From Candidatus Aldehydirespirator sp. (GTDB taxonomy: Bacteria > Actinomycetota > Acidimicrobiia > Acidimicrobiales > Aldehydirespiratoraceae): DNA of 64,000 bases. The position numbers were made by a program, and so were the translations under genes. Where the stretch lies: NCBI GenBank assembly GCA_965205155.1, contig OZ242033.1:628590-692589 (forward strand). Reading direction: 5' to 3'. Below are positions 24,843 to 27,512 of the stretch, one piece after another (positions within the stretch are counted from its first letter, which is position 1; each line of letters opens with the position of its first letter). Below the pieces are notes generated by a model. The model was not told where the DNA came from, searched no databases, and saw only the letters and a program-made list of their open reading frames with translations.

Positions 24843-25823
24843 CTAGAGCAAGCTGGCGGCGATGGCGACTACCTCGGTCAACAGCTCGCGGTTGGCAGTC
24901 GGGCCGGGCGAGATGATGTTCACGAAGAAGGCGTCGAGGCGGTGCGCGCCGATCAGGCCCTGGAGCTGGCGGCGGCACTCCGCGGGTGTGCCCGCGATCT
25001 GGTATTCGGCCACCAGCTCGTCGGTGACGAGCCGGCCGACGGCTTCGGGGCCGCCCTCGTCGAAGGCCCGCTTCAGCCCGGCGATCTCGGCTTCGTCGAG
25101 GCCGAGGTTCTTGAGGATCCGGGGCGGGCTGTCCATGATGGCGTAGCCGTAGAGGTGCTTGGCCTCCTCGATCATCTCGGGCTTGTAGGCCAAGCGGTCG
25201 AGGTAGACGCGCGTGAGCGGGGCGCTCGCCTCCGTTCGGGCTTGGTCGGCAAGGCCGAACGCGTCGCCGAGGTCGGACTTGACCATCAGCACCAGGCCGT
25301 CGGCGTTGGTGCCGGCCAGGGCCAGCATCCTCTCGCCCCGGGCCGCGACCCAGATCGGGATCGAATGGGTGCCGGTGGTGAGTTGCGCCCCTTCCAGCGA
25401 GAGTCTCCGTCCCTCCCAGGTGACGGGCTCTCCCCGCCACAGCAGCCGGAGCGCCTCGATGGTGTCGGCCATCCGCGCCAGCGGGTCGGAACGCTCGAGG
25501 CCGATCGGACGCAGCACCATGGTGCCGCCGGCCACCAGCGTCACGAAGGCCCGGCCCCCGCTCATCTCGTCGACGGTGGCGACCGCGGCCGCGGTGGCGG
25601 CCGGGTGGCGGGTGTAGGGGTTGGTGACCGCCCCCAGGCGGATGGTGCTGGTGGCCCGGGCCGCCGCGCCGAGAACCGCGTAGACGTCCAGCATCAGGCC
25701 CTCGTCGGCCACCATGCAGTACGAGTAGCCGAGTTCCTCGGCGGCCACGATGGTGTCGATCAGCTCCGCCGAGCCCATCGTCGGCACGATCTGCAGACCG
25801 AGGGAGATGCCCTCTGCGGTCAC
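24843..25823 (-). CDS. LLM-class (luciferase-like) F420-type oxidoreductase, Mer-like
   Basis: GTG at 25823 overlaps the SDR stop (GTGA). [40 protein letters not shown] closely parallels the methylene-H4MPT reductase/LLM F420 core as I recall it. Confidence 0.75.
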   Translation of the reverse strand: [326 protein letters not shown]

Positions 25824-26545
25824 GGCGCGGTGTCCTGCCAGGGGTCGCGAATCGGCCGGATGACGACGGGGCCAATGTCGATGCGCCGGTCGGTCTCGAC
25901 CAAGTCGGCCACCAGTTCGCCCACGCCGTCGGCGGGCATCATGCGAGCCCGCACTGGCGCGGGCGCCTTGCGGTCCCACAGTCCCGTATCGATCTGCGCG
26001 GGGCAGACGGTGATGACCCTTATGCCCCGATCCCGCCCCTCCAGCCGGAGAACCTCGCCGAGCGCGTTCATCCCACCCTTGGATGCGGCGTAGGCGGCGT
26101 TGCCCTCGAAGGCCTGGACCGCGGCGATACTGCTGATCAGCACGATCTGCCCGCCGGCCGCAGCCAGCGGTTCCCAACCGGCGCTGGTGAGGGCCATGAC
26201 CGCGCTCAGGTTGATGTTGATGACGCGGCGCCAGTGGTCCGCGCTGGCCTCGGGCACGGTTGCCTTCTCGAAGGTGCCCGCGCTGTGAACGATCACGTCG
26301 AGGCGGCCGTGCGCATCGAGGGTCTCCGCAACGACCCGCTCAGGCTCGCCGGGTTCGGTCAAGTCCGCGGCCAAGGCCACCGCAGGCGCGCCCAGCCTCT
26401 CGACAGCAGCCTTCAGCCGGTCCTCCCGCCGTCCGACAAGCACACAGCGGGTGCCCCGGGCCGACAGGGCGGATGCGCAGGCCGCGCCGATGCCGGTGCC
26501 GCCCCCGGTGACGATCGCCACTGGTTCGGTGCCGGTGTCCGTCAT
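25820..26545 (-). CDS. SDR-family oxidoreductase
   Basis: Start at MTDTGTEPVAIVTGGGTGIGAA (26545). TGxxxGxG and YxxxK-type (AYAASK) motifs. Confidence 0.85.
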   Translation of the reverse strand: MTDTGTEPVAIVTGGGTGIGAACASALSARGTRCVLVGRREDRLKAAVERLGAPAVALAADLTEPGEPERVVAETLDAHGRLDVIVHSAGTFEKATVPEASADHWRRVININLSAVMALTSAGWEPLAAAGGQIVLISSIAAVQAFEGNAAYAASKGGMNALGEVLRLEGRDRGIRVITVCPAQIDTGLWDRKAPAPVRARMMPADGVGELVADLVETDRRIDIGPVVIRPIRDPWQDTAP

Positions 26546-26552
26546 GGGTGGC

Positions 26553-27512
26553 TCACCCGAAGAAGGAGGCGGTGAGCACCTCATGGTTGATGAACCCCGC
26601 GCTGAAGGTCCGGCCGCTGGCCAGGTTGGTGAGGTGGATCTCGGCGGGGGAGTGCAGCTCTATGGGGATCTCGTAGAAGTCCCGCCCGGCGTCCTCGTAG
26701 ATCTCGATGAAGGGGCGTCCGTAGGCGGAGCTGGCCATCGACACCACCCGGTCGACGATCTCGGCGCACTGGGCGTCGTCGCCGTCGACGGTCACGTTGG
26801 AGATGCCGCCGTACAGCAGGCTGTCGTTGATGCGGCCCATCGAGATCAGGTCGTCGTCCACCAGGGGCGGCACCACCCCCAGGCCGTAGGCGCAGCGCAG
26901 GCCGCGCAGGTCCATGCCCTCCTCGGCGAGGCGGTGTATGGACTGCTCCACGATGCGGGCCGCCACCTGCACCGCGGTCACGAGGCTCCGGTTCGGCGCG
27001 AACAGCACGTAGAGGTCGCTGGGGGCTACCCGGCACGCCGAGGCGATCATGTCGGCTATGGCCACCGGGATCGGCTCGGAGGTCTGGATGGCCACCACCG
27101 ACTCGTGATGGTCGTCGCGGTAGTCGATCCACTCGAAGTAGTGGTCCAGGCTGTCGCGGTTCAGGGCCCGTCCCGGTCCGGCCAGGATGGCGGCGTGCTC
27201 GGTGCCGGGCGCCTGCAGGCGCCAGCCCGCGATCTGCGACGCCACGCAGGCCTCGATGGGGTGGTCGATCATCACCCGCACCGCAGTGAGCATCCGCCCG
27301 TCCAGATCGAAGGGTTCGTAGCTGACGATGCCCAGCCCCCCCAGGCTGACCAGGGTGTAGAGCTGGGCGGCCCGCCAGCCTCCCCTGGCCTCGAGGCCCA
27401 TGTCGATGACGGTGGCTCCGTTGTGGAGCCGGTCCACGGACACGCCCAGCGCGTCGGCCTCGTCCAGGATGAGCCGCACCGTCTTCATGGCCTCGCGGTT
27501 GACGCTGATCAT
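26553..27512 (-). CDS. mch: methenyltetrahydromethanopterin cyclohydrolase (Mch) homologue
   Basis: Start MISVNREAM at 27512 with GGAGG upstream. It runs colinear with archaeal/methylotroph Mch along the whole ~319 aa by eye (SVN…NGATVID.G…GGLG…DHP…ASQIAGW…GPGRAL…APN.S…VQVAARIVE…GRINDSLLYGG…GDD…YG.PF…DFY.I…F.PAE). Confidence 0.8.
   Translation of the reverse strand: MISVNREAMKTVRLILDEADALGVSVDRLHNGATVIDMGLEARGGWRAAQLYTLVSLGGLGIVSYEPFDLDGRMLTAVRVMIDHPIEACVASQIAGWRLQAPGTEHAAILAGPGRALNRDSLDHYFEWIDYRDDHHESVVAIQTSEPIPVAIADMIASACRVAPSDLYVLFAPNRSLVTAVQVAARIVEQSIHRLAEEGMDLRGLRCAYGLGVVPPLVDDDLISMGRINDSLLYGGISNVTVDGDDAQCAEIVDRVVSMASSAYGRPFIEIYEDAGRDFYEIPIELHSPAEIHLTNLASGRTFSAGFINHEVLTASFFG

Follow-up and report, generated by a model that had tools for sequence, protein, structure and literature searches.

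The window analysed here is a stretch of 64,000 nucleotides (nt) from Candidatus Aldehydirespirator sp. (Acidimicrobiia). On its minus strand lies an operon that combines a homologue of methenyltetrahydromethanopterin cyclohydrolase (Mch) with a luciferase-like monooxygenase (LLM) family oxidoreductase resembling methylenetetrahydromethanopterin reductase (Mer). The operon is widespread and undescribed, and the Mch-like protein in it probably represents a functionally new type within an established family. Until now the only known job of the Mch fold has been in the one-carbon (C1) metabolism of methanogens and methylotrophs. Because the window DNA is ∼70% G+C, genes were called using third-position GC, and ∼55 open reading frames (ORFs) were scanned against family profiles (Pfam and NCBIfam). 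The run of genes in question is as follows, with SDR standing for short-chain dehydrogenase, TPP for thiamine pyrophosphate and PDH for pyruvate dehydrogenase.

31369-32532 (-): Rieske oxygenase alpha subunit, from the profile scan; outside the cross-phylum core
30641-31315 (-): flavin reductase, PF01613; neighbour at genus level, with translational coupling to E1alpha
29664-30641 (-): TPP-dependent dehydrogenase E1 alpha subunit; its nearest solved structures are PDH E1alpha
28618-29667 (-): TPP-dependent dehydrogenase E1 beta subunit, PDH/acetoin type
28323-28580 (-): free-standing lipoyl-domain protein of 85 amino acids (aa), with no E2 catalytic domain after it
27544-28326 (-): SDR1, immediately upstream of the Mch homologue
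26553-27512 (-): Mch-fold cyclohydrolase, 319 aa; E1-associated subfamily of PF02289
25820-26545 (-): SDR2; likely start ATG at 26545, with the ORF open to 26584
24843-25823 (-): Mer-like LLM oxidoreductase, 326 aa; 4 nt at its start are shared with the end of SDR2

The genes from Rieske oxygenase to LLM are arranged head to tail. Four junctions overlap by 1-4 nt, the other gaps measure 7-53 nt, and a pattern scan of the run found no promoter-like and no terminator-like site. In the genus Ca. Aldehydirespirator the Rieske gene probably heads the transcription unit. The E1alpha, E1beta and lipoyl proteins matched PF00676, PF02779 with PF02780, and PF00364, respectively, and the best NCBIfam match of the lipoyl domain is acetoin dehydrogenase E2. 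Both SDRs match butanediol dehydrogenase models below the cutoffs, and for SDR1 there was no PDB relative below 1e-45 and no NCBIfam match above cutoff.

The initial annotation of this DNA had described an Mch homologue, colinear with the known enzyme over its whole length and flanked by SDRs, with a Mer-resembling LLM protein two genes downstream. Its coordinates and reading frames are correct and the description holds in each of these points, as does the statement that the window lacks the marker genes of the tetrahydromethanopterin (H4MPT) pathway: no fae, ftr, fhc or mtd family, nor an mptG-type one, was matched in the ∼55 ORFs. E1alpha/beta and the lipoyl carrier, which we found to be the invariant partners of Mch, had not been tied to it.

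The Mch homologue and the Mer-like oxidoreductase

The product of 26553-27512 matches the MCH family PF02289 at 340.4 bits, covering profile positions 1-311 of 311, and scores 281.4 bits against the equivalog model TIGR03120, for which the cutoff is 228.8. Searching the PDB with phmmer returned Mch chains only (1QLM, 4e-70), and the protein was aligned end to end with the Mch structures of M. kandleri, M. ruminantium and A. fulgidus. An AlphaFold2 model (pLDDT 93.1) gave TM-scores of 0.90-0.91 to 1QLM, 4GVQ and 4FIO, and a PDB structure search with this model found no fold other than the two-domain one of Mch at E<=0.001. Upadhyay et al. 2012 reportedly centre catalysis on Arg183, Glu186 and the segment 93-95 (A. 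fulgidus numbering). Arg186 and Glu189 of the window protein align with the Arg183/Glu186 pair, which is near-invariant across the Mch family and kept in the window clade. The segment 93-95 reads Q-I-A in the window protein and Q-K-A in A. fulgidus, with position 94 variable across the family. Judged from its sequence, the Mch homologue is a genuine, full-length family member in which the reported catalytic residues are retained; a loss of the active site, which the initial annotation had considered, is not seen.

Among 1.84 billion cluster representatives, 141 proteins matched at E<=1e-30, and an identity gap separates the window clade (>=62%) from all others (<=44%). The nearest homologues, with up to 95% identity, come from metagenome-assembled genomes (MAGs) titled Candidatus Aldehydirespirator, Acidimicrobiia or Acidimicrobiaceae; sponge-associated Actinobacteriota are the subject of the one paper found to mention the family Aldehydirespiratoraceae. 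A neighbour-joining tree without support values has two superclades, one holding the window clade and ∼20 other representatives and the other the archaeal PDB sequences. In this tree, a comparison of the kind that the initial annotation had proposed, the window Mch does not group with characterised Mch of archaea or methylotrophs. Three positions conserved on the canonical side are altered on the window side (E140 to Q in 97%, F280 to H, and D276 to P; A. fulgidus numbering), and the catalytic pair is unaltered.

The more distant Mch-like proteins, at 35-44% identity, still adjoin E1alpha/E1beta genes, an HTH-cupin regulator, Bmp or energy-coupling factor (ECF) transporters, or a deaminase. 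The neighbourhoods of six window-side representatives were viewed; one of them, P0133, lies on a 1.3-kb contig with no informative neighbour, and the others are listed here.

P0127: MCH-E1a-E1b
P0126: MCH, HTH-cupin regulator and Bmp protein
P0152: LplA, MCH, E1a, E1b, E2, sarcosine-oxidase-like subunits and an ECF S-component
P0128: ECF transporter, deaminase, HTH-cupin regulator and MCH
P0116: a Caldilinea locus

The canonical-side control, P0130, adjoins RimK-type ATP-grasp and His_biosynth genes, which we take to be the expected H4MPT-type context; the window-side loci examined do not show such neighbours.

The LLM protein (24843-25823) matches PF00296 at 173 bits. Its two top NCBIfam matches are Mer models, NF002619 (174 bits) and TIGR03555 (152.1 bits), with the next family at 84 bits, and all six of the six PDB matches below 1e-10 are Mer. 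The label 'Mer-like' is thus correct, since the best NCBIfam and PDB matches are all Mer. However, both scores fall under the curated Mer cutoffs, which are 276 and 348.7 bits. In the Mer known as jMer, four positions surround the C1 carrier, Glu6, Phe233, Gln178 and Asp96, of which Glu6 (position A) is catalytic and Asp96 (position D) contacts the pterin; a Glu6Gln variant retains 0.4% of kcat (PMC11094777). We compared these positions in the window protein and 52 orthologues from related loci (n = 53). Glu6 is replaced by Gln in 53/53 (Gln11 in the window protein) and Asp96 by Gly in 53/53; position 178 is Met in 52/53, and Tyr stands at Phe233, also in 52/53. In jMer, position 178 is Asn as transcribed from the PDB alignment and Gln178 in PMC11094777, and because of this discrepancy position C is treated only as a carboxamide residue replaced by Met. 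These residues and scores indicate that the product of 24843-25823 is Mer-like, not Mer.

The strong NCBIfam matches of the LLM are all F420-class LLM families, the FMN-class families reaching 1e-14 or weaker, and the VTNPY loop at the cis-peptide site below F420 is conserved. The protein probably still uses F420. A place among FMNH2-dependent monooxygenases, raised in the initial annotation, does not agree with these matches, which put it nearest to Mer and F420-type LLMs.

Conservation of the operon and its version in Enterocloster bolteae

Window proteins were compared by tblastn with 56 related genome loci from Acidimicrobiia and Chloroflexota. The order E1a-E1b-lipoyl-SDR1-MCH-(SDR2)-LLM was seen wherever the flanks were long enough, including an Anaerolineales MAG and a Caldilinea MAG. 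E1a was present in 47/56 loci, LLM in 52/56 and SDR2 in 53/56, and in metagenome loci E1alpha lay within 8 kb of Mch in 39 of the 54 eligible. Twelve more distant genome loci, Ilumatobacteraceae and Chloroflexota among them (within L041-L058, L063 and L064), have an E2 catalytic domain after the lipoyl domain. Across phyla, nothing in the module is better conserved than the SDR-Mch pair, which is found in the Acidimicrobiia, Chloroflexota and Bacillota versions. Two further variants read SDR-MCH-FMN_red without E1, and one of these (L117) adjoins a PreA/UacX-like reductase, an amidohydrolase and a Bmp ABC transporter. In lineages other than the genus, an FMN_red/Flavodoxin_2 protein takes the place of the flavin reductase.

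Two or three Mch-like paralogues stand close together in L056, L068, L070, L095, L121, L126 and L128 (for example MCH-E1a-E1b-E2-MCH), with three in L126, which suggests more than one ring-opening step or substrate in some organisms. Up to four LLM genes surround the Mch module in the Ilumatobacteraceae loci L063 and L064 (3233-5997 and flanks); two LLMs of L063 were scanned, and Mer is the best NCBIfam family for both. The same two loci also carry FGGY kinase, DeoC/ADH-synthase-like aldolase and 2-hydroxyacid dehydrogenase genes.

A metagenome scan with a 5-sequence alignment as query returned many human-gut contigs, whose Mch-like protein is WP_021892942.1 of Enterocloster bolteae (P0271; L072-L092). 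Further members are from Halanaerobiales and Oscillospiraceae. The E. bolteae locus begins with LacI, FMN_red, an NCS2 permease, LplA, FeS and Mo subunits of the xanthine dehydrogenase (XDH) family (XdhA-like), SDR and MCH, and continues with E1a, E1b, E2, a deaminase-type amidohydrolase, a RibD_C-like protein, E3, ABM, an MBL-fold protein and the phosphotransacylase PduL; it thus has a full set of E2, E3 and LplA. The NCS2 permease shares 33% identity with UacT, the urate symporter of E. coli, and the nearest PDB match of the amidohydrolase is 8-oxoguanine deaminase. None of the gut and anaerobe loci examined carries LLM, which is therefore regarded as an Actinomycetota/Chloroflexota addition to the core. 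The cross-phylum core consists of SDR, the Mch-like protein, E1alpha/beta and lipoyl/E2, usually together with an XDH-type enzyme and a deaminase/SsnA-type amidohydrolase. To our knowledge, E. bolteae is a Clostridium-type gut bacterium without methanopterin metabolism.

Databases name the Mch-like proteins of E. bolteae, Oscillospiraceae, Halanaerobiales, Acidimicrobiia and Caldilinea 'methenyltetrahydromethanopterin cyclohydrolase', a naming that is a probable systematic over-annotation. The 90%-identity cluster holding the E. bolteae protein also lists 327-aa members called 'E1 component subunit alpha / acetoin dehydrogenase E1 alpha'; Mch-like and E1alpha are neighbouring genes and not homologues, so either the clustering or the naming looks wrong.

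These data bear on the suggestion, made in the initial annotation, that the locus is a remnant or a repurposed H4MPT-like C1 module. A genuine pterin-bound C1 module would use the Mer-like LLM, an SDR as substitute for Mtd, and Mch acting on H4MPT or a related pterin. Such a module would agree with an Mch that scores above its equivalog cutoff and keeps the catalytic residues, with an LLM whose nearest family is Mer, and with the strictly conserved SDR-Mch adjacency, which is reminiscent of Mtd/Mch or FolD. However, the Mer residues Glu6 and Asp96 are replaced in every orthologue compared, and the first of these replacements is the one that all but abolishes turnover in jMer (PMC11094777). Moreover, the gut and anaerobe versions do without LLM, no fae, mtd, ftr, fhc or H4MPT-biosynthesis gene was found in the window or the loci examined, and the window Mch stands on a branch apart from canonical Mch, in a module that E. 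bolteae also possesses. The neighbourhood is instead one of XDH-like, deaminase/SsnA-like and YgeY-/YgeW-like proteins and nucleobase or nucleoside transporters. We give a working C1 module a slim chance; of the earlier proposal 'repurposed' stands, and the remnant or working H4MPT pathway is not upheld.

Neighbouring genes and a possible link to purine degradation

The window features outside the run that recur in other loci or extend the strand upstream are the following.

46227-49839 (-): two NCS2 (xanthine/uracil family) permeases
32967-34577 (-): amidase, PF01425; a genus-level neighbour
19069-23999 (+): Bmp/PnrA-type ABC transporter (binding protein, ATPase and two permeases), convergent on the operon
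13718-17627 (-): XDH-family molybdenum hydroxylase (Mo+FAD fusion and 2Fe-2S subunit), 33% identical to E. coli XdhA
5706-6386 (-): HTH-cupin regulator; the same type adjoins Mch-like genes in other phyla

Bmp/PnrA-type transporters are likewise found beside Mch-like genes in other loci. Upstream of the run and on the same strand lie the amidase, a phosphopantetheinyl transferase (PPTase), an acyl carrier protein (ACP), a polyketide synthase (PKS) of 3198 aa, an alpha/beta-hydrolase and the two NCS2 permeases. The PKS (35658-45254, -) has the domain order KS-AT-DH-cMT-ER-KR-ACP-KS, which we take to resemble that of the 'Sup' PKS of sponge symbionts, a putative producer of methyl-branched fatty acids. 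It is preceded by the alpha/beta-hydrolase (45289-46164) and followed by the stand-alone ACP (35339-35551) and the PPTase (34574-35284).

From the PKS at 45254 to the LLM at 24843, by way of ACP, PPTase and amidase, the genes share the minus strand in head-to-tail order, and in many Ca. Aldehydirespirator MAGs the ACP and PPTase genes keep synteny with the operon. Both facts would suit an operon that serves the PKS, by tailoring its product or supplying an extender, with E1 and the lipoyl protein bringing a C2 unit to the stand-alone ACP. However, 434 bp separate the amidase from the Rieske gene, and the PKS, ACP, PPTase, amidase, Rieske and flavin-reductase neighbours are confined to the closest MAG group. 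The core occurs without PKS, ACP and PPTase in L001/L034, L035-L040, Ilumatobacteraceae, Chloroflexota and E. bolteae; because the core module lacks a PKS in most lineages, we rejected this reading, the least probable of those weighed.

The anaerobic pathway of uric acid degradation offers a parallel. In this pathway XdhD forms 2,8-dioxopurine, which YgfK or UacX reduces; SsnA then opens the pyrimidine ring and HyuA the hydantoin ring, YgeW/UacY and YgeY remove ureido groups, and YgeX yields pyruvate (PMC12507026; 10.1101/2025.04.24.650524). Chloroflexota clusters have a putative F420-dependent reductase of the luciferase family instead of YgfK/UacX (PMC12507026). Both reports are silent on Mch-fold enzymes, SDRs and TPP-E1/lipoyl systems. 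We compared E. coli MG1655 proteins with all loci. Chloroflexota-type Mch loci contain an XdhD-like FeS+Mo fusion (35-38% identity, ∼560-607 bits), a YgeY homologue that in L116 scores above its equivalog cutoff (371.6 vs 321), and a YgeW-like carbamoyltransferase below its cutoff. In the Anaerolineales locus L056, HyuA (42%), an SsnA-like gene and YgeY directly follow MCH-LLM. YgeX was found in only 2 loci and HyuA in only 1 (L056). Identity to SsnA is 22-27% for the amidohydrolases that adjoin Mch-like genes, and their scores stay below the SsnA cutoffs.

Several other genes of the window are recorded here as side observations. A deaminase-type amidohydrolase, a Zn-dependent alcohol dehydrogenase, a DeoC homologue (52001-52762) and an FGGY kinase fragment (62962-63999) are present. 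Rieske oxygenase alpha subunits number four in 64 kb, at 17643-18881 (-), 31369-32532 (-), 50636-51814 (+) and 53352-54665 (+), with one beta subunit at 52762-53334 (+); the best named relative of one of the alphas is the glycine betaine monooxygenase GbcA, far under cutoff. DUF1989 and a GCV_T aminomethyltransferase (folate-binding domain) are fused in an 818-aa protein at 90-2546 (-), and a separate DUF1989 protein, adjoining Rieske oxygenase genes, lies at 54662-55297 (+); together they look like an N-demethylation module. ATP-dependent hydantoinase/oxoprolinase A and B (7520-11238, +), a cupin protein (7099-7497, +) and an AMP-dependent ligase (11235-12794, +) form a block that adjoins the Mch-LLM operon, whole or in part, in L012, L019 and L033. 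Two adjacent small proteins of 135 and 145 aa (12791-13632, -) gave weak matches to PaREP1/PaREP8, an archaeal family and odd in an actinobacterium. A pair of FitA-like ribbon-helix-helix antitoxin and PIN-domain toxin (49940-50574, +) is located between the permease genes and a Rieske gene.

Proposed function and comparison with known systems

The best explanation of the locus is that the Mch homologue and the Mer-like LLM are parts of a conserved catabolic operon for a purine-like (or pteridine-like) nitrogen heterocycle. On balance we consider it probable that the recruited Mch fold opens a cyclic amidine ring in the catabolism of a purine-like compound; any single substrate would be named with much less confidence. 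Homology, retained and lost residues, conservation of the operon and gene neighbourhood are observed; the scheme that follows, in its reaction, step order and class of substrate, is inferred. Nucleobase or nucleoside transporters would import the substrate, which the XDH-family molybdoenzyme and the deaminase/SsnA-type amidohydrolase would modify. A reductase would then dearomatise the ring, a task that may fall to the F420-type Mer-like LLM in Actinomycetota and Chloroflexota and to a PreA/UacX-like, RibD_C-like or FMN-reductase protein elsewhere. In a purine whose pyrimidine and bridge bonds are reduced, the five-membered ring would become an imidazoline, the ring type of the methenyl-H4MPT imidazolinium. 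The water-activating Arg/Glu pair of the Mch fold would hydrolyse the cyclic amidine or amidinium carbon of this imidazoline-type ring, the chemical equivalent of the methenyl carbon of methenyl-H4MPT, to an N-formyl group; N5-formyl-tetrahydropterin would be a formal analogue of 5-formamidopyrimidine. The adjacent SDR would make or consume the substrate of the Mch-fold protein.

The same hydrolysis could also be directed at a folate-bound C1 unit, methenyl- or formimino-tetrahydrofolate, freed in purine breakdown as in clostridial purine fermentation. The purine-type neighbourhood, the retained amidinium-hydrolysis residues and the folate-binding GCV_T protein at 90-2546 would all fit. However, the operons examined contain no formiminotransferase or cyclodeaminase gene, the Mch-like gene is tightly coupled to SDR and E1alpha/beta and not to folate enzymes, and pocket positions conserved in canonical Mch are changed. 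We regard a folate-bound substrate as unlikely.

In the heterocycle pathway that we favour, E1alpha/beta would finally oxidise a residual keto or hydroxy-keto fragment on the lipoyl carrier to a short acyl-CoA, and the PduL gene of E. bolteae fits such an oxidation. The locus might alternatively be in essence an operon for an acetoin/diketone or 2-oxoacid dehydrogenase, with the Mch-fold protein non-hydrolytic or accessory. E1alpha/beta of PDH/acetoin type, a lipoyl domain with acetoin dehydrogenase E2 as top match and SDRs that match butanediol dehydrogenase models, if below cutoffs, are what such an operon would contain. However, it would leave the systematic context of XDH, deaminase and nucleobase transporter unaccounted for, some loci have SDR-Mch-FMN_red without any E1, and the catalytic Arg/Glu of Mch is conserved throughout the subfamily. 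This makes a plain dehydrogenase operon very improbable.

A number of observations weigh against the proposed heterocycle catabolism or against a purine as its substrate. The window lacks YgeY, YgeW, YgeX and any HyuA-type hydantoinase, and the closest amidohydrolase of deaminase type lies ∼33 kb away. Where amidohydrolases adjoin Mch-like genes, they resemble SsnA no more than they do guanine (GuaD) or 8-oxoguanine deaminases, and Mch is no simple replacement for HyuA, because L056 has both. No 2-oxoacid_dh (E2) domain was found in the window or in loci with >80% Mch identity, a set that covers every locus titled Ca. Aldehydirespirator. The uric-acid-induced operons reported for E. bolteae are described by the names ygeY, ygeX, ssnA, hyuA and xdhD and include no cyclohydrolase (10.1101/2022.12.12.520169), and appear to be a different locus from the Mch operon. 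The split of the Mch family, moreover, was seen in a plain neighbour-joining tree that has no support values. Each of three substrate classes, purine, pteridine and vitamin-like, agrees with some of the context. In favour of the pteridine or vitamin type are the RibD_C-like protein, an ECF S-component whose folT-family match is weak, the pterin-binding ancestry of Mch and Mer, and the nearby sugar-type genes DeoC and FGGY. The S-component itself does not reveal the substrate, because it has only a sub-threshold folT-family match and no PDB relative. Other candidate substrates that we weighed are biopterin or neopterin (by side-chain cleavage), dimethyl-lumazine or riboflavin (by breakdown), thiamine (by opening of the thiazolium), 7-methylguanine-type purinium salts, and methanopterin itself.

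We tentatively put forward the more specific possibility, which we hold at less than even confidence, that SDR, Mch-fold protein and TPP-E1/lipoyl system constitute an undescribed branch of anaerobic/aerobic purine (pteridine) degradation, in which the amidine carbon of the dearomatised five-membered ring would be converted to formate. If so, the branch would span the gut bacterium Enterocloster bolteae, sponge-symbiont Acidimicrobiia and Chloroflexota, and the database name 'methenyl-H4MPT cyclohydrolase' would be a systematic misannotation. A literature search of the available full texts found no paper on an Mch homologue outside C1 metabolism. A confirmed role would fill a gap among the enzyme types of the recently discovered reductive purine pathways, through which urate levels in the host are affected, and could be tested in a cultivable gut bacterium. 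It would also remove a misannotation, at equivalog level, by which 'H4MPT pathway' genes turn up in surveys of gut, soil, marine and sponge metagenomes, and would give functional access to an operon conserved in sponge-symbiont Acidimicrobiia.

Four known systems resemble parts of the operon. With the reductive uric acid pathway it shares the logic of hydroxylase, ring reductase, ring-opening hydrolases and C3 release, and XdhD-, YgeY-, YgeW- and SsnA-like genes and urate/xanthine-type permeases occur around Mch-like genes, whereas the window itself holds only the XDH-like enzyme, the permeases and the distant deaminase-type amidohydrolase. Acetoin and pyruvate dehydrogenase complexes have in common with it the E1alpha, E1beta and lipoyl domains of AcoABC-L/PDH type, but the genus group keeps only the free 85-aa lipoyl domain, and the complex sits in a heterocycle-type operon. 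Mer (PDB 8QPL and 1Z69) is the best-scoring family for the LLM and the only one matched in the PDB, and shares with it the TIM-barrel LLM fold and the conserved VTNPY loop; the LLM differs in scoring below both curated cutoffs and in having Gln for Glu6, Gly for Asp96, Met at 178 and Tyr for Phe233. Canonical Mch (EC 3.5.4.27) differs from the window type, which occurs in taxa not known to make methanopterin and, in the loci examined, adjoins SDR and usually E1alpha/beta but never fae, mtd, fhc or H4MPT-biosynthesis genes. The two nevertheless have the same length and fold, with 34-40% identity between the window protein and the archaeal structures, and the SQxAGW segment and the Arg183/Glu186 pair are kept; probably they also have the same chemistry, the attack of water on an amidinium carbon to give an N-formyl group.

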